Origin: a virus
Lineage: Duplodnaviria > Heunggongvirae > Uroviricota > Caudoviricetes
IMG/VR virus record: IMGVR_UViG_3300042905_002309
Span: 32,001-96,000 of that record
Strand: one strand, 5' to 3'
DNA: 64,000 bases
Both the position numbers and the translations under genes were made by a program. Within the stretch, counting starts at the first letter, position 1. Every line of letters starts with the position of its first letter. The notes under the pieces were generated by a model. The model had not been told where the DNA came from. It was given only the letters and a program-made list of their open reading frames with translations, and searched no databases. Below are positions 3,957 to 36,369 of the stretch, in pieces.

Positions 3957-5102
3957 TTATGCAATCTCAGTATTGTCAACAACTGTCGTATAAGTATTAT
4001 CGAATTTATAATCTCCACTGAATACAGCATACACTGTCACAACTGGTGAATATGATGGTTTAGGTTTAAACGATTCTCTTGGCATAAATCCATAACGCAT
4101 CGCAAGACGTAAATCTTTATCTGGATATTGTTTTTTAGCAGGAAATCCATAAAGCATCATAATTGGTCGATCTTCTGCCTTTTCTGTCTTTTCTAGAACC
4201 TCAAACACACCTTTAACGGTATATTTTGGTTCATATGTCTTATTTTTACAATGATCTTTGCAACATTTACAACTACGGAAACGCTGTTCTAAAAACTTAT
4301 TTTCCCAAATTGCTTGTAATTGACTATAAGGAATATTACCCTGTACTAAATCGTTAATATTACTTACCCATGAACGCATACTCAAACATGGAACAACATC
4401 TCCATTTGAAAGAATACCGATAGACTTTACACCTGCACTACACGATCCATTATTCATATCATCTGCAAGAACAACTTTTACCTTCTGATCAATTGCAGTT
4501 TGAATTTTATCAAATAAATGCTTCAACGCTTCATCATTGTTATAAATGGCATCAGAACTTTCCATATCATTATACATGGTGTACTGAACCTGCCAGTTCA
4601 TATTATACGTACTAACAACAGTTCTAATTTTATCAAAAAGAAATACATTATTGATATTGAAATTAGTAATGACGGTCATTTTATCAACTAATGGTAATCG
4701 ATTACCAAATGTTGCAAAGAATTGATCAATTTCCACTTGTTCGTTAAGTGATACACCAACCCAATCATAAGATTCTAATATTTTAATCTTATCATCAAAA
4801 ATCATCGGGGAAAGTTGTTTAAAACTCTTAGGATTGAAAAGGATTTTAACCTGTACACCCTTATCTTTCAATACTTTTACCAAACGTTGGTGTGTAGCTA
4901 ATGGTACTAATAGTGGATCACCACCACTAACATCGATAGCCGTAGGTGGAAACTCTGCAATGGCATCAACAATTCGATCAATAGTATTGGTATCAATTTC
5001 AGTATCCCATTGGTCTTTTGATCCACAATATTTACAGCCATTGTTACACTTACCTGTAATTTCGTAAATAATCTCTTCTAATTTAATTGCTGGTTTATTC
5101 AT
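3957..5102 (-). CDS. Radical SAM/SPASM protein, splicease-like, with C-terminal YG-motif tail
   Basis: YEITGKCNNGCKYCGS (CxxxCxxC), SGGDP, SPASM CSAG..SIGI.SNGDV.PCLSM, C-terminal Cys cluster. Confidence 0.85.
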   Translation of the reverse strand: MNKPAIKLEEIIYEITGKCNNGCKYCGSKDQWDTEIDTNTIDRIVDAIAEFPPTAIDVSGGDPLLVPLATHQRLVKVLKDKGVQVKILFNPKSFKQLSPMIFDDKIKILESYDWVGVSLNEQVEIDQFFATFGNRLPLVDKMTVITNFNINNVFLFDKIRTVVSTYNMNWQVQYTMYNDMESSDAIYNNDEALKHLFDKIQTAIDQKVKVVLADDMNNGSCSAGVKSIGILSNGDVVPCLSMRSWVSNINDLVQGNIPYSQLQAIWENKFLEQRFRSCKCCKDHCKNKTYEPKYTVKGVFEVLEKTEKAEDRPIMMLYGFPAKKQYPDKDLRLAMRYGFMPRESFKPKPSYSPVVTVYAVFSGDYKFDNTYTTVVDNTEIA

Positions 5103-8085: not shown

Positions 8086-8159
8086 TGGTGCGGTATGGGA
8101 AATTCGAATTCCCAACAAAACATTGGCAATGTCTTATGTTACCATTACACTAATACCGC
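8086..8159 (-). tRNA. tRNA-Gly(GCC)
   Basis: Cloverleaf, loop TTGCCAA, encoded CCA. Confidence 0.9.
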
Positions 8160-9045
8160 ATAAAAGTTTCTTTATCTGTTCAAAATATTTTAAACCATAC
8201 TGTTCATTAAAATTACCATCTTTAGATACATCAATGGTTATTAATTGTATATTGTTTTTAAGACATAATTCAGATTTAATTTTGTCTTTTTTTATATTAT
8301 TAATTAATCGCTTCTCACCATATATTGGTTTATAATGGATGATGCCGTTAAATTCAATTCCTAATTTATAATCAGGAAAATATAAATCTAGTTCATATGG
8401 ATTTATTATTTTTCTACTATTAAAAAGACATTTGGGTTTTAATGTTGTTAATATTTTATCTTTCAAATATTTCTCTAATTTAGATGTTGACGCATGTTTT
8501 ATATGATGTTGTAAATTATATTTATTTCTGCATGTCATATTACAAAATTGATTTGTTGTTTCCTTTTTGTAAGATTTACGTGTAAATTCTTTATTACAAT
8601 AAGTACAAATTAGTTGTTTTTCGTATACTTTAGTTCGATATTTAGTTCGATATTTACTTGCACACGATTTACTACAACATATTGCATCCTTTTCTCCACT
8701 ATGAAATGATATTTTACATTGTGGACATATTTTATTTGGTAGTTTATTTGCATTAAATTTACCAGAACACGTATGATTACAAAAATGATTATTAGATTTA
8801 ATAAAATCTTTATAAATTAATATTATATCGCAGCCACATTGTTTACATTTAGTGGATATACGATTTTGTTTAAACTTTGCTCTACATGTATTTGAGCAAC
8901 AGTCTAATTTTCTCCCACCAGACAAACAAGATAACACTTCATTTTTTGGTTTATAATAAATGTTATTACATTGTTTACATTTAAGTGGTATAGGATCACG
9001 ACTCTTATAATTTTTTAATTCTTCTATTGTTATTTGTATGTTCAT
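8134..9045 (-). CDS. Putative homing endonuclease: CxxC repeats plus PD-(D/E)xK domain
   Basis: Multiple CxxC/C..TC repeats; ELDLY...GIEFNG..HY C-terminal domain; located inside tRNA array. Confidence 0.75.
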   Translation of the reverse strand: MNIQITIEELKNYKSRDPIPLKCKQCNNIYYKPKNEVLSCLSGGRKLDCCSNTCRAKFKQNRISTKCKQCGCDIILIYKDFIKSNNHFCNHTCSGKFNANKLPNKICPQCKISFHSGEKDAICCSKSCASKYRTKYRTKVYEKQLICTYCNKEFTRKSYKKETTNQFCNMTCRNKYNLQHHIKHASTSKLEKYLKDKILTTLKPKCLFNSRKIINPYELDLYFPDYKLGIEFNGIIHYKPIYGEKRLINNIKKDKIKSELCLKNNIQLITIDVSKDGNFNEQYGLKYFEQIKKLLCGISVMVT

Positions 9046-9062
9046 ATAACTATTTAGTGAAA

Positions 9063-9141
9063 TGGAGCATCAGGCGGGTAACTCTCCCGCTTATATTATC
9101 CACATTGGAAGTGTGGTGCCTCAATTTTAGGCTACTGATGC
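9063..9141 (-). tRNA. tRNA-Gly(TCC), atypical T-loop
   Basis: CCACA-CTTCCAA-TGTGG; T-loop AGAGTTA; CCA. Confidence 0.8.
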
Positions 9142-9147
9142 ATGAAT

Positions 9148-9224
9148 TGGAGCAGTAAGTCAGACTTCCACTGACTAAATGTGAGGTTGCAACTCACCGC
9201 TTCGTGTGTTTTAGCTTTTACTGC
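9148..9224 (-). tRNA. tRNA-Cys(GCA)
   Basis: GTGAG-TTGCAAC-CTCAC; U73; CCA. Confidence 0.85.
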
Positions 9225-9231
9225 ATAAATA

Positions 9232-9306
9232 TGGCGAGTCAAATCGGCTATGCTCCGATATCAAAAGCGCAATAAGCTTCCGTTTTAATGTTTAAACTAT
9301 TGACTC
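9232..9306 (-). tRNA. tRNA-Asn(ATT), atypical
   Basis: GAAGC-TTATTGC-GCTTT; G73; CCA; non-canonical T-loop. Confidence 0.6.
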
Positions 9307-9312
9307 ATAAAA

Positions 9313-9398
9313 TGGCGGGGATGACGGGACTTAAACCCGCATTGCTTTTCAGCGTCACCGTGACAGGGTGATATGTCTATCAATTCCACCACATCCCC
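9313..9398 (-). tRNA. tRNA-Asp(GTC) with long variable arm
   Basis: TCACC-CTGTCAC-GGTGA; G73; CCA. Confidence 0.85.
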
Positions 9399-9404
9399 AA
9401 AAAA

Positions 9405-9480
9405 TGGTACTCGATCACAGAATCGAACTGTGATTTTCTGCATGTAAAACAGAAGTACTAGGCCGTTGTACGAATCGAGC
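9405..9480 (-). tRNA. tRNA-Val(TAC)
   Basis: TCTGT-TTTACAT-GCAGA; CCA. Confidence 0.9.
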
Positions 9481-9486
9481 ATTAAA

Positions 9487-9794
9487 TGGTCGAGAAAAGA
9501 CTCCGCTTTAAGAGGATTTCACTATTGTTCTGTTGGTTCTCCCTTCACTCACGGTGATGGAGCCAACATCTATCTCTCTTCTTAGTCTACCTGCACCTGA
9601 ACTGGTGCTGTTCCTTTAGCCAACTGGATTTCACTGTTGTTCTCTACGTGGAGCCATATATCCCGCTATAGTCGGGGTATGGACATGTATATGATCTATC
9701 AGTTGTGTTAACTATTTTCATGCAATTCTCTAGGGTTTAATCATTATGGAGAACTGCACTAAAATACGTTCAAAGCTAATTAAACTATCTCTCG
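9487..9794 (-). ncRNA. ~308-nt structured RNA with tRNA-like acceptor stem and CCA end
   Basis: 5' CGAGAGA pairs with 3' TTTCTCG-ACCA; D-arm-like hairpin; several internal stems. Confidence 0.65.
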
Positions 9795-9804
9795 AAATTG
9801 GTAA

Positions 9805-9945
9805 CGGATCAAATAATGGTCGTAAATTTCAGGCTTGTTATGATCGTGGTATAGCACTTTGTATTATTGATTCATCTAAACAAAAGTATGTAAAGGAATC
9901 TAATAGTATCAAATTTCTTGATATCATAACTAACATAATAAACGA
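9805..9945 (+). pseudogene. Remnant C-terminus of a PD-(D/E)xK homing endonuclease
   Basis: NNGRKFQAC..RGIALCIIDSSK..Y.KE....FLDIITNII resembles the end of ORF 8134..9045. Confidence 0.5.
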
Positions 9946-9948
9946 AAG

Positions 9949-10022
9949 TAGCGGGTCAATGAGTCGAACATTGAATGTATAGGTTATGAGCCTCACCAGA
10001 AAACCCTTTCTAGCTACCCGCA
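9949..10022 (-). tRNA. tRNA-Met(CAT), initiator-like; CCA not encoded
   Basis: GCGGGT/ACCCGC acceptor with 1:72 mismatch, loop CTCATAA. Confidence 0.7.
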
Positions 10023-10033
10023 AATTCTAAAAT

Positions 10034-10108
10034 TGGTGCCGATAGAGGGAATCGAACCCACGCAAATCTGCTTATGAAACAGACACTCAGCCATTGAGTG
10101 ATATCGGC
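10034..10108 (-). tRNA. tRNA-Met/Ile2(CAT)
   Basis: TCTGT-TTCATAA-GCAGA; CCA. Confidence 0.85.
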
Positions 10109-10115
10109 GTAAAAT

Positions 10116-10198
10116 AATACCAAGTGTCCTGAACCTCTAGACGACTGATGAACTTTCATTCACCAAGATGGATTCGAACCATCGTTTCTCAGTTGATT
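10116..10198 (-). ncRNA. Circularly permuted tRNA-like RNA
   Basis: Order T-arm, acceptor stem closed by GAAA loop, D-arm; ends lie at the anticodon stem. Confidence 0.7.
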
Positions 10199-10273
10199 AA
10201 ACGCAAGTGGTCTACTATTAACCTACAATAGTTTGATCTATCGTTGGAAGTTGCATCCAAACTACTTGCTAAA

Positions 10274-10347
10274 TGGTGGGAACAGAGAATTTCGAAATCT
10301 CATTGCTAGGGTTTCACTCTAGAGTACTGCCTTTGTACGACATTCCC
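10274..10347 (-). tRNA. tRNA-Phe(GAA)
   Basis: CTAGA-GTGAAAC-CCTAG; CCA. Confidence 0.85.
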
Positions 10348-10548
10348 AAAAATCTATAGGTATCGTGTCCTAAAACGCTTACATTTACATGACTTTAAGT
10401 GTCATAATCAACTATCGCTGAAAATCTTCGAAATTCCGCTATAGTTGATTTGGAAATTGGTGTAGTCTCTCCTTACTGCCACTATTGACATGATCAGTGT
10501 ACGGCTGGATGTCATTTCGGGTTAGTTACCGTATCCATTTCTGGAAAT

Positions 10549-10624
10549 TGGTGGAGCAGATGGGAGTTGAACCCACATTATGCCACATTGCAGGTGTGGT
10601 GCATGGCCTTTATGCTACTGCCCC
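10549..10624 (-). tRNA. tRNA-Ala(TGC)
   Basis: G3:U70 pair; loop CCTGCAA; CCA. Confidence 0.9.
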
Positions 10625-10635
10625 ATAAAATATGT

Positions 10636-10700
10636 GCTGGATTTCACGAATGTTCCACCTACCACTCCACTGATCAGGTGGTTGTAAGGTGTCTATCAGC
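10636..10700 (-). ncRNA. Small three-way-junction RNA module
   Basis: GCTG-ATAGA-stem-GAA-CA(TTCG)TG-AAATC-CAGC; same module occurs twice in the 308-nt RNA. Confidence 0.55.
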
Positions 10701-10704
10701 GTAA

Positions 10705-10761
10705 CAGACTAGTATGTTTTTTTCTTAATAATAGAATTTTTTTGTTTGCTGGAACTAGTCT
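10705..10761 (-). ncRNA. CAGCAA stem RNA (minimal copy)
   Basis: AGACTAGT/ACTAGTCT stem followed by TCCAGCAAAC. Confidence 0.6.
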
Positions 10762-10767
10762 AAATTG

Positions 10768-11067
10768 TTAAATGTCCGAAGCTTCTCTTGTGCGTCTATA
10801 ATCTTGGCTTCTTACATTGTTTTCTTCACTGGTTTGAAAATGGCTCGATACTGTTTCAACCTTCCATCCATTATCATCACCAATTCTTAAATACTTTCCT
10901 AAGATTGCATACTTTGCAGGTATGTAAGCTACTTGTGTAGCATTTTTCTTAGAGAGTGTGCATTGTTTGTAATCATTCTTCATGATTTGTCTTCTGATTG
11001 TTGTAGTGTCACTATCTTCATAGGGACTTCTTAAAACATTGTCAGGTGTACTTGGATAAACTTTCAT
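10768..11067 (-). CDS. Hypothetical protein inside tRNA operon
   Basis: 99-aa ORF with AG-rich RBS. Confidence 0.6.
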   Translation of the reverse strand: MKVYPSTPDNVLRSPYEDSDTTTIRRQIMKNDYKQCTLSKKNATQVAYIPAKYAILGKYLRIGDDNGWKVETVSSHFQTSEENNVRSQDYRRTREASDI

Positions 11068-11093
11068 AATTACTTTCTTTCTTTGTTAAAAAA

Positions 11094-11168
11094 TGGCACC
11101 CGATAGGGGTTTCGATCCCCTTTCTAGAGTTTGAAGGACTCCTATCCTAGCCAGTAGACGAATCGGGT
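11094..11168 (-). tRNA. tRNA-Glu(TTC)
   Basis: GGAGT-CCTTCAA-ACTCT; G73; CCA. Confidence 0.85.
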
Positions 11169-11177
11169 GTGTTAAAA

Positions 11178-11252
11178 TGGCACCTCATGAGGGTATCGAT
11201 CCCTCTCCTACAGATTGAGAATCTATCGACCTAGCCACTAGTCCAATGAGGT
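11178..11252 (-). tRNA. tRNA-Glu(CTC)
   Basis: ATAGA-TTCTCAA-TCTGT; CCA. Confidence 0.9.
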
Positions 11253-11259
11253 ATTAAAG

Positions 11260-11348
11260 TGGTGCATCTGACAAGAGTTGAACTTGTATTTGCCTAACGG
11301 CCTTTTGGGTTCGTAGCCCAACGTGCTAATCCATTACACTACAGATGC
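11260..11348 (-). tRNA. tRNA-Arg(ACG) with long variable arm
   Basis: TTGGG-CTACGAA-CCCAA; CCA. Confidence 0.85.
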
Positions 11349-11355
11349 ATAAAAA

Positions 11356-11431
11356 TGGTGCAGACACTAGGATTTTAACCTAGAACAAGAGGATAGGAAC
11401 CTCACATGATGTACACTTTCACCATGTCTGC
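11356..11431 (-). tRNA. tRNA-Arg(CCT)
   Basis: GAGG-TTCCTAT-CCTC; CCA. Confidence 0.85.
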
Positions 11432-11437
11432 ATGAAA

Positions 11438-11513
11438 TGGCGCAGATACCAAGATTCGAACTTGGAATTAAAGGGTAGAAACCTATCGTGATAGTCCGTT
11501 TCACTATACCTGC
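11438..11513 (-). tRNA. tRNA-Arg(TCT)
   Basis: AGG-TTTCTAC-CCT; CCA. Confidence 0.85.
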
Positions 11514-11521
11514 ATTAAAAT

Positions 11522-11597
11522 TGGAGCCAACAGTGACAATCGAAGTCACAGCCTTCACATTACCAATGTGATGTTCCGCCACTTGAACTATGTTGGC
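11522..11597 (-). tRNA. tRNA-Thr(GGT)
   Basis: TCACA-TTGGTAA-TGTGA; CCA. Confidence 0.9.
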
Positions 11598-11602
11598 AAA
11601 AA

Positions 11603-11679
11603 TGGTCGGTCTGGTGGAAGTCGAATCCACATTATACTGGTTAAGAGCCAGTTCTATATGCCTTTCTAGTCACAGACCG
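11603..11679 (-). tRNA. tRNA-Lys(CTT)
   Basis: ACTGG-CTCTTAA-CCAGT; CCA. Confidence 0.9.
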
Positions 11680-11684
11680 ATAAA

Positions 11685-11759
11685 TGGTGCTCCTATTGGG
11701 TATCGAACCCACTTCCCAAGGGTAAAAGCCTCGTGTTAATCCACTACAACTCTAGGAGC
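11685..11759 (-). tRNA. tRNA-Lys(TTT)
   Basis: CGAGG-CTTTTAC-CCTTG; CCA. Confidence 0.85.
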
Positions 11760-11769
11760 GTAAAAAAAT

Positions 11770-11849
11770 TGGTGCGCCGAGTGAGAATTGAACTCACCTC
11801 GATCAATGTATAAGATTGAGCTAAATGCTACCAGCTTAGTTTTCGGCGC
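11770..11849 (-). tRNA. tRNA-Ile(TAT)
   Basis: TCAAT-CTTATAC-ATTGA; CCA. Confidence 0.85.
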
Positions 11850-11853
11850 AAAA

Positions 11854-11931
11854 TGGTCAGCTAGGTCAGACTTGAACTGACAATATTCCTGTATCCAAAA
11901 CAGGTCGCCTACCAATTGGCATCACTAGCTG
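11854..11931 (-). tRNA. tRNA-Pro(TGG)
   Basis: CCTGT-TTTGGAT-ACAGG; C1:G72; CCA. Confidence 0.9.
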
Positions 11932-11944
11932 ATTAAAATTATTT

Positions 11945-12046
11945 GTGGTCTATCCCCACCGTCAAATCAATGCTGGTTCACTTTAATCCTGTTGACCAGT
12001 AAATTCACCTATCACATCAGGGTTCGTAGGTGAAGATGTATTGATT
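11945..12046 (-). ncRNA. Structured intergenic RNA
   Basis: AATCAAT/ATTGATT closing stem, two hairpins with complementary loops, 3' GTGG/CCAC hairpin. Confidence 0.5.
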
Positions 12047-12050
12047 AAAT

Positions 12051-12127
12051 TGGTCGGAGTAACAGGGATCGAACCTGCATGACTTATGGGCCCAGGCCAT
12101 ACGCTTCGCCAATTAAGCTATACTCCG
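12051..12127 (-). tRNA. tRNA-Pro (loop CCTGGGC; TGG, possibly GGG register)
   Basis: CGGAGTA acceptor, TATGG/CCATA stem; CCA. Confidence 0.8.
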
Positions 12128-12133
12128 ATAAAA

Positions 12134-12210
12134 TGGTCGGCTATGGTGGTAACGATCCACCCTTCTCTGTGTATCAGACAGAAGTAATCAAACCTATATA
12201 CTAATAGCCG
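12134..12210 (-). tRNA. tRNA-Ile(GAT)
   Basis: TCTGT-CTGATAC-ACAGA; CCA. Confidence 0.85.
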
Positions 12211-12216
12211 ATAAAA

Positions 12217-12309
12217 TGGTGGCAATAGTAGGAATCGAACCTACCGTGTTTACCCGAAGGGAACAGATTTACAGTCTGCTACGACACAACCAATAGTCGT
12301 CTTACTGCC
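12217..12309 (-). tRNA. tRNA-Tyr(GTA)
   Basis: GCAGA-CTGTAAA-TCTGT, class II variable arm; CCA. Confidence 0.9.
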
Positions 12310-15293: not shown

Positions 15294-15797
15294 TTAATCG
15301 TGTTCTACTTTACATTCCAAGGTTTTCTTAATCTCAAATAAGTAATACATACAGATACTCTTTAAAAGATCAGGAACATCACAGATAGAGTTATGCATAG
15401 ATGAATCGCCAGTTAAGATGATATCTCCGTTATAAAATTTAGTTTGAATACGATAATACTGATTCAAAATATCTGTCACAAGTTCTGCATCAGGTTGGAC
15501 ATACTGATATCCACCAAGTCCACTATCTTCTTTTAATGCTTCCAATCTAGCGATTAATGTGGTAAGTTGTTCTGTCTCGCGTCTAAAATGTTTACCCATT
15601 AATTCGTTTCCCATAATATCTTTACGTCTATCGGTAAAGCGTTCAATCAAACTTTCTGGTTCAAAATAATCATACTGAAATTCTTGTGCAATTGACTCAC
15701 AAAAATCCATTATATTCACATCGTGAATACGTACAATATAACTTGCACTTGAACTGTTACTTACAAAACCGTTTCTTAATTTCATGATCTCTCCCAA
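15294..15797 (-). CDS. MKxRxGFVSNSSS-family protein
   Basis: MKLRNGFVSNSSSASY; probable start ~15785. Confidence 0.7.
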   Translation of the reverse strand: MGEIMKLRNGFVSNSSSASYIVRIHDVNIMDFCESIAQEFQYDYFEPESLIERFTDRRKDIMGNELMGKHFRRETEQLTTLIARLEALKEDSGLGGYQYVQPDAELVTDILNQYYRIQTKFYNGDIILTGDSSMHNSICDVPDLLKSICMYYLFEIKKTLECKVEHD

Positions 15798-16030
15798 TTT
15801 ACTATATCTTCTTCGACTCCAATGTTCACTAAAAATTCACGCATATCAAAATTATCCATAGAAGTATAACCTTCTACTGTGTGTGTTGTAACAGTAATAG
15901 TCCAAGGATTGTCATTAGTATGATCTGAATGATTCACAATATCAACTAATTGTTTAGCTGTAATCTTTATTAAAGGGATTACAAAGCTACTTGAGCTACT
16001 ATTACTTACAAATCCAATTCTTATTTTCAT
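15782..16030 (-). CDS. MKxRxGFVSNSSS-family protein
   Basis: MKIRIGFVSNSSSSSF with GGAG RBS (shorter than ORF-track call). Confidence 0.7.
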   Translation of the reverse strand: MKIRIGFVSNSSSSSFVIPLIKITAKQLVDIVNHSDHTNDNPWTITVTTHTVEGYTSMDNFDMREFLVNIGVEEDIVNWERS

Positions 16031-16031
16031 A

Positions 16032-16226
16032 TTATCTCCAAATTCTCCTATAACCATCAACGGGAAACATCTGTCTAAAAATTCTTTTTGGTGCAGTTTC
16101 AATATCTCTATGATAAAGCATTGAGAATATACAGAATTTACCAATAAAATACTTATATACAACGCCACTTAAAGGATACATGAAGATTGCGGGTACATAC
16201 CAAACCTTTTCTCGTGTTCTTTTCAT
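16032..16226 (-). CDS. Hypothetical protein
   Basis: Fills gap between neighbours with overlapping start/stop. Confidence 0.45.
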   Translation of the reverse strand: MKRTREKVWYVPAIFMYPLSGVVYKYFIGKFCIFSMLYHRDIETAPKRIFRQMFPVDGYRRIWR

Positions 16227-17875: not shown

Positions 17876-19009
17876 TCAACCATTATAATAATCAGTTAAC
17901 TCACCCTTATAATTCTCAATAACAACATTCACACCTTCTACACTTTTAATGTAGTTGTAAATAATAGGTATCTTTCCACCACCAGCGGGTAAGTCTACAA
18001 CTAATTGAGGTATAGCATATCCACTAATATTACCTCTAATGCTTTTAAAAATCTCAATACCCTTCTCAATAGTTGTTCTAAAATGACCTGAACCAGTTAC
18101 CTTATCACAAATGTATGTATAATAAGGCTTTACACGTATTTTTAATAACCCTGTGAATAATTTTTTAAGGGTTTCACTATCATCATTAACATCTTTCAAT
18201 AATACTGTCTGACTTCCTAAAGGTATACCTGCATCAGCCAATCTATTACAAGCTTCTTGGGTTTCTGGTGTCAATTCACTAGGATGTGTGAAATGTAGAC
18301 TCATAAACAATGGATGATATTGTTTTAACATGTCAGTTAATTCTTTTGTAATACGTTGAGGTAATACAGCAGGAATTTTTGTACCAATTCGAATCATTTC
18401 AACATGAGGAATTTTACGTAAATTTGAAAGTATCCATTCTAAGGTTTCTGTTGGTAAAGTTAAAGGATCACCACCAGAAATTAACACATCTCGTATCTCT
18501 TTATGTTCTTCGATGTATTTAAGTGACTTCATCCATTGTTCTTTAGTATATGTTTTATCTTTACCAACCATACGTGATCGTGTACAATACCTACAAATGG
18601 TGCTACAATAGTCTGTAACGAGAAATAATACTCTATCTGGATATCTGTGTACCAAACCATCTACAGGGCTTTGGTTGATCTCATGAAGTGGATCATCTTG
18701 TTCACATTGTGAGATGATATGTTCCTCATCGGAAGGCATTACTGTTTTTCTTAGCTTATCACCCAATATGGATGCATAATAAGGAGTAATACCCATAGGA
18801 AATTTGTAATTATTATCAGTAGTATCGATAATTCGGTTTCTTAATTGCCATCTCCAATCATTCCATTCAACATAAGGTACACTTGGATAGTTTTGCTCCA
18901 TAAACCCATGTGTTATTGGGCCTATGGGCATACTACTCGGAGGCTTATCTGATTCTTCGGAACAACACTCAACAGCTTCAACCACATCGACGATTTTTTC
19001 ATTTTGCAT
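17876..19009 (-). CDS. kamA: Lysine 2,3-aminomutase-family radical SAM enzyme (KamA/EpmB-like)
   Basis: WNDWRWQ, HRYPDR, CSTICRYCTR, SGGDP, QTVLL..VND, GGGKIP. Confidence 0.9.
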   Translation of the reverse strand: MQNEKIVDVVEAVECCSEESDKPPSSMPIGPITHGFMEQNYPSVPYVEWNDWRWQLRNRIIDTTDNNYKFPMGITPYYASILGDKLRKTVMPSDEEHIISQCEQDDPLHEINQSPVDGLVHRYPDRVLFLVTDYCSTICRYCTRSRMVGKDKTYTKEQWMKSLKYIEEHKEIRDVLISGGDPLTLPTETLEWILSNLRKIPHVEMIRIGTKIPAVLPQRITKELTDMLKQYHPLFMSLHFTHPSELTPETQEACNRLADAGIPLGSQTVLLKDVNDDSETLKKLFTGLLKIRVKPYYTYICDKVTGSGHFRTTIEKGIEIFKSIRGNISGYAIPQLVVDLPAGGGKIPIIYNYIKSVEGVNVVIENYKGELTDYYNG

Positions 19010-20358: not shown

Positions 20359-20434
20359 TGGTGCGCCTAGAGGGACTTGAACCCCCAAAACTCAGCTTCT
20401 TAGACTGATATGTATGCCATTCCATCATAAGCGC
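20359..20434 (-). tRNA. tRNA-Leu(AAG), short variable loop
   Basis: TCAGT-CTAAGAA-GCTGA; CCA. Confidence 0.85.
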
Positions 20435-20444
20435 ATAAAACGAA

Positions 20445-20601
20445 TTCTAAAATAATATGGAGTCTGCACCACCACTAAGACCAAGTTAGTCTATTTTCGG
20501 TGTACTATTCGCAACCTTTTGTGAACCGTGTCGTCAATGTTCTTCAACATCCCGTAGTACGTTTCTTCCACGCTTAAATAACTTCGCTAACTATTTTAGA
20601 A
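20445..20601 (-). ncRNA. ~157-nt structured RNA
   Basis: 10-bp terminal stem TTCTAAAATA/TATTTTAGAA exactly filling a tRNA spacer. Confidence 0.5.
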
Positions 20602-20603
20602 AT

Positions 20604-20679
20604 TGGTGCTAGTGGTGGGACTTGAACCCACAAACAACAGATTTTAAGTCTGCCCGATAAGCCGTTCTCGTACACTAGC
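20604..20679 (-). tRNA. tRNA-Leu(TAA), short variable loop
   Basis: GCAGA-CTTAAAA-TCTGT; CCA. Confidence 0.9.
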
Positions 20680-20685
20680 GTAAAT

Positions 20686-20761
20686 TGGTGCATCTGGTGG
20701 GATTCGAACCCACAAAACCTAGATTCTAAGTCTAGTACATAAGCCGTTCTGTTACAGATGC
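20686..20761 (-). tRNA. tRNA-Leu(TAG), short variable loop
   Basis: CTAGA-CTTAGAA-TCTAG; CCA. Confidence 0.9.
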
Positions 20762-20767
20762 GTTAAA

Positions 20768-20843
20768 TGGTGCAAGTGAAGGGATTCGAACCCTTAAACA
20801 ACAGTTTTTGAAACTGCCCGATAAGCCTTTCTCGTACACTTGC
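20768..20843 (-). tRNA. tRNA-Leu(CAA), short variable loop
   Basis: GCAGT-TTCAAAA-ACTGT; CCA. Confidence 0.9.
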
Positions 20844-20850
20844 ATAAAAT

Positions 20851-20927
20851 TGGTTCCCCCATCATGATTCGAACATGATCTAAGATGGTCAAAGCATCTT
20901 GTGCATAAGCCATTACACTATAGGGGA
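20851..20927 (-). tRNA. tRNA-Gln(TTG)
   Basis: AGATG-CTTTGAC-CATCT; CCA. Confidence 0.9.
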
Positions 20928-20937
20928 ATGTTAAAAT

Positions 20938-21011
20938 TGGTTGTCCTACCTTGAATCGAACAAGGTTAAATAGATTCAGAGTCTACTGTACAGCCATTAT
21001 ACCATATGACA
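20938..21011 (-). tRNA. tRNA-Gln(CTG)
   Basis: GTAGA-CTCTGAA-TCTAT; CCA. Confidence 0.9.
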
Positions 21012-21019
21012 GATAAAAT

Positions 21020-21093
21020 TGGAGCCTGTTAAGGGAATTAAACCCTTACCCACTGATTACGAAACAGTGATACTATCGTTGTACTAAACAGGC
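21020..21093 (-). tRNA. tRNA-Thr(CGT)
   Basis: Loop TTCGTAA; CCA. Confidence 0.85.
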
Positions 21094-21101
21094 AATTAAA
21101 A

Positions 21102-21195
21102 TGGAGCCAACGGTGGGATTTGAACCCACATCATCACTTTTACATGACTTAACCCGATTACAAATCGGGGCCATAGCCGTTCTGGACACGTTGGC
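21102..21195 (-). tRNA. tRNA-Thr(TGT) with long variable arm
   Basis: CCCGA-TTTGTAA-TCGGG; CCA. Confidence 0.85.
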
Positions 21196-21202
21196 AAGTA
21201 AA

Positions 21203-21278
21203 TGGAGCACCCGACAGGCATCAAACCTGCAACCTTGTCCTTACAAAAGACTTGCTCTATCAATTGAGCTACAGGTGC
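21203..21278 (-). tRNA. tRNA-Thr(TGT)
   Basis: GTCT-TTTGTAA-GGAC; CCA. Confidence 0.85.
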
Positions 21279-21284
21279 GAAAAT

Positions 21285-21358
21285 TGGCAGGAACACAGGG
21301 ATTCGCACCCTGACCAAAAGTTTTGGAGACTATTGTGCAACTTTAACACTTTGTTCCT
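21285..21358 (-). tRNA. tRNA-Trp(CCA)
   Basis: Loop CTCCAAA; G73; CCA. Confidence 0.85.
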
Positions 21359-21365
21359 ATAAAAT

Positions 21366-21459
21366 TGGAGGAAGGTGGGAGAATTGAACTCCCGCCACCT
21401 TTTAAGGGGTGGAACAATTTAGCAAATTGTCTCGACAAACCGACATTCGACTACCTTCC
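21366..21459 (-). tRNA. tRNA-Ser(GCT)
   Basis: ACAAT-TTGCTAA-ATTGT, long variable arm; CCA. Confidence 0.9.
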
Positions 21460-21464
21460 AAAAT

Positions 21465-21562
21465 TGGCTGACTCGGCTCGACTTGAACGAGCACACACAT
21501 CCCGTTAAGAATGTCATGGATGGTTTAACAGACCATTGCCTTACCATTAGGCCAACGAGTCA
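21465..21562 (-). tRNA. tRNA-Asn(GTT) with long variable arm
   Basis: ATGGT-CTGTTAA-ACCAT; G73; CCA. Confidence 0.85.
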
Positions 21563-21638
21563 AACTTAAATTGTTTCTTGATATCGTGTCAAGGACGCTT
21601 GATTTGCACAAGGGGTTACGTTTACCCAATATTCAAAA

Positions 21639-21725
21639 TGGCTCCAGAGGTAGGACTTGAACCTACACGCCCATTACAGGCATCAGATTAACAGTCTGAC
21701 ATGGCTACAATTACATCACTCTGGA
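21639..21725 (-). tRNA. tRNA-Asn(GTT) with long variable arm
   Basis: TCAGA-CTGTTAA-TCTGA; G73; CCA. Confidence 0.85.
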
Positions 21726-21734
21726 AACGAAAAA

Positions 21735-21829
21735 CAAGTTGGCTTTCTACTTTTTATTTAGCGTCTAAAAATCGAAAAAGACTGATTATGGACTCTCGCC
21801 CACGTTTTATTGTTTGCTGTAACCAACTT
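21735..21829 (-). ncRNA. CAGCAA stem RNA A
   Basis: AAGTTGGTT/AGCCAACTT stem, ACAGCAAAC, GNRA hairpin, TTCGA hairpin, AAAAAGTAG. Confidence 0.7.
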
Positions 21830-21838
21830 AAAATAAAA

Positions 21839-21947
21839 CAGATTGTGTTTTCTACTTTTTAGAGAACGTCGAAACTCCCATCTTTTTGATTTATGTGATC
21901 GTCTGGTGGATCACTAACGTATTGTTGTTTTTTGCTGTACACAATCT
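21839..21947 (-). ncRNA. CAGCAA stem RNA B
   Basis: AGATTGTGT/ACACAATCT stem, ACAGCAAA, hairpin, TTCGA hairpin, AAAAAGTAG. Confidence 0.7.
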
Positions 21948-21951
21948 AAAA

Positions 21952-22029
21952 TGGCTAACCCTGCTGGACTCGCACCAGCAAAAATTGACTAACGTTAATT
22001 GTCAACTTTCGGCTACTAGCTAAAGGTTA
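21952..22029 (-). tRNA. Degenerate tRNA (Asn-like, irregular anticodon arm)
   Basis: TAACCTT/AGGGTTA acceptor, T-arm, GCCA end; enlarged loop containing GTT. Confidence 0.5.
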
Positions 22030-22036
22030 ATGAAAA

Positions 22037-22133
22037 TGGAGGAAGCGGTGGGATTCCAACCCACGGAGGATAGTTTGAGCTACCCCCTTCCGTTTTCAAG
22101 ACGGACGCAATAAAGACGCTCTGCCACGCTTCC
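22037..22133 (-). tRNA. tRNA-Ser(TGA)
   Basis: TCCGT-CTTGAAA-ACGGA, long variable arm; CCA. Confidence 0.9.
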
Positions 22134-22143
22134 ATAAAATAAA

Positions 22144-22309
22144 CAGGTTGATTTTCCTACTTTTTACACAGAAAATCGAAACTGTCACAAGTTTTACATC
22201 AGTAGATCACGATGTCAGGTTTTTATTTATGTGTCGCCTAGATAAAGACACTATGCCCGAAGGCATTTATTTACTATTTAGTTTATTGTTTGTTTGCTGC
22301 AATCAACCT
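22144..22309 (-). ncRNA. CAGCAA stem RNA C
   Basis: AGGTTGATT/AATCAACCT stem, GCAGCAAAC, UUCG hairpin, TTCGA hairpin, AAAAAGTAG. Confidence 0.7.
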
Positions 22310-22314
22310 AAAAT

Positions 22315-22390
22315 TGGGGCGATATACGAGACTTAAACTCGCTCTAAAACATTCACAGTGTTTCGTGCTAATCATTACACTAATATCGCC
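22315..22390 (-). tRNA. tRNA-His(GTG)
   Basis: G-1:C73, loop CTGTGAA; CCA. Confidence 0.9.
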
Positions 22391-34956: not shown

Positions 34957-36369
34957 ATGAAAACAAACAGCAGAACATGTAACGGCGCAAACGCATTCGA
35001 ACACTCAGAAAACCATCTTTTGGAATTCTTTTCCAAGGCTGGATCATTATACACAAAGAAGGAGAGTTACTACGGTAATGAGTCTTCTGCTTTGGAATTG
35101 TTCAAAACTGCTTGGAGAGCAGATGCTGAAAAGGCTATGAAGTTGCTTTTCTGGTTGCGTGATTGCCGTGGTGGTGCAGGTAACAGAAGTGGTACAAGAG
35201 AAATCTTAACTTGGTTGGGCAATACTCACTCAGAATGGGTAAATGCCAATATCAACCTTATCCCTAAGTATGGTCGTTGGGATGATTTAACCGCTTTGTA
35301 TAACACTCCTTGTGAGAACTCAGCATTAGCTTGTTGGGAAACTGGTATCTTGGGTGATGATTCTGTTTGTGGTCTTGCTTCAAAGTGGGCTGATAGACAG
35401 GATGTAAAGCTTCGTAAGCATATGAAGCTTTCTCCAAAGGCTTTCAGAAAGCTTGTTGTACAGAAGACTAAGGTAGTTGAAACCATTATGTGTAATAACG
35501 AATGGGCTAATATCAACTATTCTACAGTTCCTTCTGTAGCTTCTGCTCGTTATAAGAACGCTTTCAAACGCCATGATGCACAGTATGAGGAATGGGTTAA
35601 GTCTTTGACAAAAGAAGGTACTGAAACCAAGGTCAATGCTGAAACATTGATGCCTCATGATATTGTAAGAATGGTACAGACTGACATCAATGATGCTACT
35701 ACTGGTGCATTAGCTGATGCTCAGTTGAAGGCTATGCCTAATTTCATGGAAGGTACTAATTACAGAATTATGCCTATTTGTGACTTCTCTGGTTCAATGC
35801 ATGTTCAAATGTCTGGATCAATTCAGGCATATGAGGTGTCTTTGGCATTAGGGTTGTATTGTTCTGAAAAGGTTGGTTCAGAGAATCCTTTCTACCGTAA
35901 GGTGATTCCATTCTCTACCGATTCTAAGATCGAGTCTTGGAAGAATAAGTCTTTTGCACAAGCTGTAAGAGATATTCCTAACGGGTATTGTGGTGGTACG
36001 AATATTCAGAAGGCTTTGAACAAGATTCTTGAAGCAGCTACTTTATTCAATGTTACGAATGATCAGATTCCTAACGTCTTGTTAATTCTTTCTGATATGC
36101 AGTTCGATCAGGGTGTTGAAGATTGTGGTACACCTGTAAACGAATCTTTGGCTAAGTGGAAGTCTGCTGGTTATGATATTCCAAAGGTAATCTATTGGAA
36201 TCTTGCTGGTAATGCTGGACAACCTGCTACTTGTGCAGACAAGAATGTTGCCTTGGTAAGTGGTTTCAGCCCATCAGTATTGAAGGCAGTATTGGGTGGA
36301 ACAGACTTTAGCCCTATTGCCATCATGAATAGTGCAATTAGTAAATATAATGTAGTAGTTCCAAACTAA
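34957..36369 (+). CDS. Ro60/TROVE-like VWA protein (DUF2828 type)
   Basis: LFWLRDCRGGAG.R, YGRWDDL, KW, MIDAS DFSGSM, GT, ILSDMQFD, YWNL, SGFSP. Confidence 0.8.
   Translation: MKTNSRTCNGANAFEHSENHLLEFFSKAGSLYTKKESYYGNESSALELFKTAWRADAEKAMKLLFWLRDCRGGAGNRSGTREILTWLGNTHSEWVNANINLIPKYGRWDDLTALYNTPCENSALACWETGILGDDSVCGLASKWADRQDVKLRKHMKLSPKAFRKLVVQKTKVVETIMCNNEWANINYSTVPSVASARYKNAFKRHDAQYEEWVKSLTKEGTETKVNAETLMPHDIVRMVQTDINDATTGALADAQLKAMPNFMEGTNYRIMPICDFSGSMHVQMSGSIQAYEVSLALGLYCSEKVGSENPFYRKVIPFSTDSKIESWKNKSFAQAVRDIPNGYCGGTNIQKALNKILEAATLFNVTNDQIPNVLLILSDMQFDQGVEDCGTPVNESLAKWKSAGYDIPKVIYWNLAGNAGQPATCADKNVALVSGFSPSVLKAVLGGTDFSPIAIMNSAISKYNVVVPN

Follow-up and report, generated by a model that had tools for sequence, protein, structure and literature searches.

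What would a large phage do with a radical SAM enzyme whose own C-terminal tail resembles the substrate of a peptide-splicing enzyme? The question is raised by an open reading frame at positions 3957..5102 (minus strand) of a 64,000-nucleotide stretch of phage DNA, hereafter the window. On translation the whole gene gives a single protein of 381 aa, P0001 (the query), in which a radical SAM enzyme is followed by a tail with tyrosine motifs. A first-pass annotation made from the sequence alone had read it as a splicease-like enzyme fused to its precursor, which would modify itself at Tyr-Gly sites and might yield ketoamide peptides, an arrangement considered unusual in a phage.

Genome context

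The source virus record is 248,016 bases long and rated complete; it represents a large uncultured lake phage that encodes a T4-type clamp loader. The 22 DNA runs that contain most of the stretch all bear a lake water or freshwater label, and 11 of them are possibly its source. The gene belongs to a minus-strand run of small genes encoding a HAD phosphatase, a DUF6899 protein, the radical SAM enzyme, an 81-aa ORF and an HNH nuclease, and its start and the stop of the DUF6899 gene upstream overlap in an ATGA. A promoter scan gave results at chance level (22 observed, 22.9 expected). RNA runs contributed three contigs of 151-325 bases (depth 2-3; two runs of one study), all within the enzyme core and none over the tail; the core contigs are no proof of transcription.

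Neither a PqqD/RRE domain (PF05402) nor a repeat-bearing precursor was found in the phage genome; among its 1,829 ORFs of at least 30 aa, 11 besides the enzyme have one loose match to the tail motif. When we looked for free-standing short homologs of the query tail, which is a weak test, none shared enough words.

Several other genes of the window deserve mention. Its 36 tRNA genes form two arrays (8086-12309 and 20359-22389), all on the minus strand, the first of which contains a homing-endonuclease-like ORF (8134-9045). A second radical SAM gene (17876-19009, minus strand) is lysine 2,3-aminomutase-like (PF04055 plus LAM_C), an unusual cargo for a phage. The adjacent ORFs at 15294-15797 and 15782-16168 (minus strand) have in common a motif, K[LI]RxGFVSNSSS, that recurs in ORFs near other members of the enzyme family (locus L140). 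Finally, a 470-aa DUF2828/DUF7788 protein, which we take to be TROVE/Ro-like, is encoded at 34957-36369 (plus strand), opposite in strand to the head genes.

The enzyme core

P0001 exceeds the Pfam cut-offs for both Radical_SAM (PF04055, residues 13-119) and SPASM (PF13186, residues 221-285). The two sequence motifs quoted in the first-pass annotation are both present: the CGS-type motif in the N-terminus, YEITGKCNNGCKYCGS, and the SPASM motif, which reads CSAG...GI...G....CLS. A partial TIM barrel, recognized by PF04055, AlphaFold2 and Foldseek, covers residues 8-214 (4461..5081, minus strand); it contains GGDP, WQVQ and ADD motifs and is shortened in the alignment between strands 4 and 5. 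The SAM-cluster motif CxxxCxxC (Cys19, Cys23 and Cys26; 5025..5048, minus strand) is almost invariant, each Cys being present in 119 of the best 120 of 222 homologs. A CxxxCxxC motif on a partial TIM barrel defines the radical SAM superfamily, and the Pfam match, the cysteine conservation, the model and Foldseek all place P0001 there.

An AlphaFold2 model based on 118 sequences gives residues 1-290 a block pLDDT of 89-99. Foldseek matches to this model are those of a generic radical SAM enzyme (SuiB, PqqE, CteB, anSME and SkfB, at 11-15% identity), a PDB sequence search returned no informative relative, PHROGs produced weak matches to generic radical SAM families only, and matches in the ESM Atlas are likewise generic radical SAM clusters. 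GGDP replaces GGEP in the query's subclade (201/296), while a deeper subfamily retains GGEP and TNG and has the Tyr-motif tail too. One family member, P0277, reads Gln at several positions that are Glu in the family (WQFT, GGQP); a recoded genome or an artefact of the translation table may be the cause.

The C-terminal part of the core is a shortened, twitch-like SPASM domain (residues 221-285; 4248..4442, minus strand), as judged from PF13186, conservation and alignment. Among the best 120 of 222 homologs, Cys221, Cys239 and Cys281 are invariant and Cys280 and Cys285 occur in most; together these cysteines would suffice for one auxiliary cluster. The second auxiliary-cluster motif, CxxCxxxxxCxG, is absent from the query and found in only 5 of 296 family proteins, versus 10 of the 13 bacterial YG-associated enzymes introduced below. 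P0001 thus does not show the seven-Cys pattern including CxxCxxxxxC, for two auxiliary [4Fe-4S] sites, that characterizes the SPASM subclass, despite its score with PF13186. The annotated SPASM domain followed by a tail of about 85 aa therefore needs amending: all three quoted tail motifs are there, but the tail is 96 aa long and the SPASM domain is reduced, without its usual second-cluster motif.

Tyrosine motifs in the query tail

The tail (residues 286-381; 3960..4247, minus strand), a candidate fused substrate by comparison with other family tails, is predicted with low confidence: residues 301-381 have a pLDDT of 34-54, and the query tail is not confidently placed. In the single-motif homolog P0113, predicted confidence by block, which does not give position relative to the core, is 76 for the motif block and 57-62 for the linker. 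Translation of the query reveals three sites, all on the minus strand: site 1, MMLYGFP (residues 315-321, with Leu317-Tyr318-Gly319; 4140..4160), site 2, AMRYGFMP (residues 334-341, with Arg336-Tyr337-Gly338; 4080..4103), and site 3, VVTVYAVF (residues 354-361, with Val357-Tyr358-Ala359; 4020..4043). A homolog that is 71% identical to the query, P0002, keeps all three (as MLIYGF, VMRYGF and an identical TVYAVFS), and its linker before site 1 has diverged.

Two YG dipeptides arise by chance in 4,412 of 100,000 shuffles of the query tail (4.4%), and three Y[GA][VCIF] matches, a pattern taken from the family, in 30 of 100,000. Within the family of 296, YGF is found only in the query and P0002, so that the YG sites stressed in the first-pass annotation are the atypical ones; only site 3 of the query agrees in full with Y-[G/A]-V, the consensus of the family. 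Taken by themselves, the two YG sites are weak evidence: it is conservation in the family that settles that the tail motif is real.

A conserved tail motif

We define the family as 296 proteins (218 + 78), from which 29 fragments or out-of-family matches (P0301-P0329) were left out. Y-[G/A]-[V/C/I/F] occurs in 277 of 295 scored tails, the remaining 18 having no strict motif. The motif is present in 114 of the tails of the best 120 out of 222 homologs; across the 120 tails there are 300 instances of Y[GA][VC], against a mean of 7.0 and a maximum of 16 in 1,000 shuffles, and the corresponding cores contain two in 34,492 residues. Over 639 sites, Tyr is followed by Gly (363), Ala (234, or 37%), Ser (24) or another residue (18), and Val is near-constant at position +2. 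In a hydrophobic-aromatic-[GA]-Val context the aromatic residue of the 296 proteins is Tyr 546 times, Trp once, and never Phe or His, which suggests that the phenol matters. The conservation of YG expected at first pass thus holds in a broader form: the tyrosine is kept, in both deep subfamilies, whereas the residue after it may be Gly or Ala, and 26 of 218 tails are YA-only. Tails with the motif contain one to seven copies, mostly 10-14 residues apart, with variable spacers; the first site is preceded by a median of 40 residues. In number and spacing the motifs resemble those of multi-core precursors.

In 115 loci (duplicates included), 81 of 87 complete genes have the motif in a fused tail; of the six others, three have YSV, YLV or YAA instead, one is interrupted by a frame break ahead of the tail and two have nothing comparable. 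Apart from two apparent tail frame breaks, no separate precursor with repeated motifs was found in these loci. Together with the lack of a separate precursor in the genome, this bears out the layout of an enzyme fused to its precursor that had been proposed from the single sequence. We considered L090:5001-5955, L152:2059-2343 and P0294 as natural split forms and rejected them: compared with fused close relatives, all three show single-base frame breaks that may be errors. In each, the frame of the enzyme stops just past the SPASM domain and the tail is encoded in a different one; they may also be rare broken alleles. The tail in L090 is an ORF of 30 aa that starts with Met and has one YAV site. 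A few members (L016:5893-7197, P0046, P0053 and P0136) have one Tyr motif in an N-terminal extension in addition to those of the tail.

A mainly viral family

The family is large, mainly viral and mostly found on large phages. At 50% identity we count 255 clusters with E-values up to 1e-30. Two scans of IMG/VR identified 15 and 20 loci (overlapping sets), many on contigs of 80-370 kb, and 79 loci were found in metagenomes. Such a gene is therefore not, among large uncultured phages, the rarity that the first-pass annotation supposed, yet 50,697 GenBank phage records contain no match. Three loci came from GTDB: L016 has phage-like neighbours, L017 lies on a 1.9-kb contig and L018 encodes an unrelated enzyme, so that none is a firm cellular member. 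Clustering of the genes around 17 loci and our own region uncovered no recurring neighbour beyond near-duplicate contigs, and no peptidase or exporter among the recurring neighbours.

Relationship to spliceases

By score, P0001 stands outside the named splicease families. Its best NCBIfam model is TIGR04133, at 43 bits against a cut-off of 425, and neither TIGR04103, which we take to be the model of the PlpX family, nor TIGR03913 is among its best 25 models. TIGR04133 and TIGR03913 presumably, judging from context, also describe spliceases; we did not find TIGR04133 in the literature, nor any confirmation that enzymes of these two families splice. Among 118 family members, TIGR04133 matches 114, HxsC 111, viperin 105, two MoaA models 97 and 96, TIGR04103, weakly, 90 and TIGR03913 70. 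The best member E-values are 1.3e-16 (TIGR04133), 1.5e-9 (TIGR04103) and 1.5e-8 (TIGR03913), and the curated cut-offs of these three models are not reached.

A profile of the core alone brings the family closer to enzymes that adjoin YG-containing proteins. Among plasmids, the best match is an enzyme from Agathobacter; a small ORF upstream of it ends in PVMYGTGVRM. In a 28-protein panel, drawn partly via matches to this YG-associated Agathobacter protein, the top six (87-47 bits) are enzymes flanked by YG or YA precursors, followed by a WgkB-family crosslinking enzyme (42.2), a partial YG-associated enzyme (41.8) and a TIGR04103 (PlpX-family) member (41.7); MftC (30 and 18), NirJ (25 and 14) and anSME (2) score lower. 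The PlpX-family member hence does no better than the WgkB-family enzyme. An independent search covered 61 Fibrobacterota genomes, which had not been selected for the phage family. The top match to the core (72 bits) adjoins a protein of 312 aa that contains 13 YG sites, mostly KYGYPC, encoded directly upstream of the WE[IV]TMGCN radical SAM enzyme (L059:2110-3048, minus strand); two TIGR04133 enzymes and then one unrelated enzyme (46 bits) come next. Beside another match, the neighbouring protein (L060:813-1523, minus strand), likewise encoded directly upstream of a WE[IV]TMGCN enzyme, combines a protease-inhibitor domain (chagasin, I42) with YA and YG repeats, namely seven of KYAPP together with two YGV sites. 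Of the bacterial relatives of the phage family, the enzymes downstream of the L059 and L060 proteins score best.

A maximum-likelihood tree (58 rows) separates 17 phage proteins and 13 YG-associated enzymes from 28 others, MftC and WgkB included, by a branch with support 97/91. A KamA-type row and four TIGR04133 rows that were near-duplicates had been omitted from this tree, and one phage row was dropped by the program; PlpX is represented by one over-cut-off TIGR04103 protein (853 bits), which falls on the same side of the branch as the phage family, and the panel is without PqqE, triceptide, darobactin or ranthipeptide enzymes. The stem leading to the phage family is long (1.9 changes per column), and grouping of the phage family with the bacterial WEITMGCN subfamily is neither rejected nor established (AU p = 0.435). 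Two motifs, picked after viewing the alignment, follow the same division: [WYF]ExTxxCxxxCxxCG[ST] is found in 260 of 296 phage proteins, 13 of 13 YG-associated enzymes and none of the 28 others, and a WQxQ-type motif in 245 of 296, 10 of 13 and none of 28, respectively. Both are present in the characterised enzyme PcpX (supplement of PMC11414181).

Tree, core profile and motifs thus suggest that the phage family groups with splicease-type enzymes. This affinity is what survives of the splicease-like label; membership of a named family fails by score and by cluster layout. Low scores, the long stem branch, the missing second auxiliary-cluster motif and the proportion of Tyr-Ala sites argue against strict splicease membership. 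At the sequence level, the two outcomes that the first-pass annotation had named as contrary to its reading, clustering with non-splicease radical SAM enzymes and loss of the YG sites, did not occur.

Possible roles of the tail

On these comparisons, P0001 is probably a one-gene fusion of an enzyme and its substrate, the tail being modified by the enzyme. Tyramine excision at the Tyr sites is the likeliest form of this modification, though all told an even bet; supposing that the tail is modified, it becomes a rather likely chemistry. The tail would enter the active site of its own chain (in cis) or of a second copy, the tether replacing the leader and RRE used by bacterial systems. Each site would be threaded into the barrel and tyramine (C8H9NO) excised, which would leave keto-beta-Leu (site 1), keto-beta-Arg (site 2) and, at the Tyr-Ala of site 3, perhaps keto-beta-Val. 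Within the infected cell, the ketoamide groups left behind could then serve as warheads against proteases. Since neither a peptidase nor an exporter accompanies the gene, the product would be expected to stay on the protein, and the release of free ketoamide peptides suggested at first pass finds no backing. It is doubtful that the modified tail, so retained, inhibits host Ser/Cys proteases during infection. A general scheme in which large phages carry a single-gene self-splicing protein, with ketoamide warheads in its own tail, Tyr-Ala sites included, that block host proteases as a RiPP-type counter-defence with no separate precursor, seems to us similarly improbable. A compact enzyme of this type, needing neither leader nor RRE, working perhaps with one auxiliary cluster and perhaps accepting Tyr-Ala, would be a tool for protein labelling and would probe which clusters splicing needs, and several hundred natural enzyme-substrate pairs, one chain each, would provide a ready specificity map.

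We may also hypothesize that the tail is the enzyme's own substrate and that the chemistry has drifted, toward cleavage of the Tyr side chain or backbone that cuts the tail up into short peptides, or toward a Tyr-to-Val crosslink across Y-x-V. This is a minor but genuine possibility: the 37% of Tyr-Ala sites, the near-constant Val, the lost second-cluster motif and the long stem are all consistent with it, and MftC (PMC8326336) offers a precedent within the superfamily for other Tyr-plus-Val chemistry. Precursors adjoining the nearest bacterial enzymes vary between YG, YA and YM too, however, and YA need not mean new chemistry. The aromatic position is also stricter than in three-residue cyclophane enzymes, which use several aromatics, and both MftC and WgkB fall across the 97/91 branch.

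A self-modifying enzyme would turn over only one to seven times, and this favors another reading, which we consider rather unlikely: the tail may serve as a pseudo-substrate, a docking arm or a decoy without itself being turned over, the enzyme acting in trans on host or phage X-Tyr-Gly proteins. Leader-independent splicing of unrelated proteins is documented (PMC10533398), and C-terminal fusions of the activating helix work in PlpX and RhaX. The tail motif is strand-like, unlike that helix; the loose matches in other ORFs of the genome are single, none of them in repeats; and repeat expansion would better suit a product than a single regulatory plug. Trans action would account for the few members (18 of 295) that retain the core with a very short or motif-less tail. 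Scarcely credible is the view that this is a radical SAM enzyme of the ordinary phage kind, serving unrelated metabolism and ending in a low-complexity tail that means nothing for catalysis. The weak matches to a wide range of unrelated radical SAM models and the lack of conserved gene neighbours would suit such an enzyme, but the excess of tail motifs over expectation in the best 120 of 222 homologs, the strict selectivity for Tyr, the clade shared with YG-precursor enzymes and retention of the motif in both deep subfamilies would not.

Comparison with known systems

The literature consulted, PMC10849128, PMC9811515 and PMC10994174 included, describes no splicease that is carried by a phage or fused to its own substrate. 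It did not include the principal overview of spliceotide types (Scott et al. 2022), which may be relevant to fusions and to Tyr-Ala sites, and novelty in print is uncertain.

Twitch-domain enzymes such as SkfB and BlsE have, like the phage enzyme, a C-terminal domain of single-auxiliary-cluster size (Foldseek TM ~0.54-0.55). Their identity to the query (13-15%) is no better than that of full SPASM enzymes in the same search, and their substrates differ. Triceptide/cyclophane enzymes recognize an aromatic-X-X motif in which the aromatic residue is interchangeable. In the phage family it is Tyr apart from the one Trp, and one WgkB-family crosslinker falls outside the branch of a tree that contains no triceptide enzymes.

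Enzymes of TIGR04133 (rSAM/lipoprotein system) and TIGR03913 (GDL-motif, DUF1843-associated) are flanked by proteins that carry YG and, in the case of DUF1843, also YA and YM. Unlike the phage enzyme, they have separate precursors, and phage scores reach about a tenth of the cut-off. Triplicated DUF1843 proteins are encoded beside GDL-type enzymes at L042:1034-1734 and L043:1168-1881, with sites varying between YG, YM and YA; on splicing of YA or YM sites in DUF1843 or I42-domain proteins we found nothing in the literature. The bacterial WEITMGCN subfamily (L021 from Agathobacter, L023/L060 and L059), for whose activity no description was found in the literature, has the highest core-profile scores (87 and 72 bits), and has in common with the phage family WQxQ, ADx and GILxNGD motifs and repeated YG and YA sites. 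It differs in its full SPASM domain and in having its precursor as a separate gene.

The spliceases proper offer the closest functional model. According to PMC11414181 and PMC11626197, they excise C8H9NO at XYG without needing a leader, and the ketoamide of Rheinheimera spliceotides is required to inhibit Ser and Cys proteases. The validated sites in PMC11414181 include MYGVV, MYGAV and LYGSV, a variation after YG that leaves room for Phe, and structure prediction there places the XYG site in the active site; PlpX is assigned to IPR026482 (PMC11002830). The passages of the splicease literature consulted mention no spliced site other than XYG. Spliceases (PlpX/PlpY/PlpA, PcpX/PcpY/PcpA, RhaX/RhaA, RcsX, RasX) and the phage enzyme have in common an N-terminal WEITxxCNxxCxxCGS, a WQIQ strand and a CxAG...GI first SPASM hairpin. 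Their targets are, as in the phage family, hydrophobic-X-Tyr-Gly sites, often repeated, with no strict need for a leader, and the query tail has the X-Tyr-Gly of spliceotides in LYG and RYG. The phage family departs from them in its shortened SPASM domain without a second-cluster motif, its shortened barrel and its share of Tyr-Ala sites, and the phage enzyme in its residence on large phages and a score far below the model cut-off. Where spliceotide systems have a separate leader-bearing precursor, with or without a Y protein or RRE, the phage enzyme has neither and carries its substrate-like motifs on its own chain.
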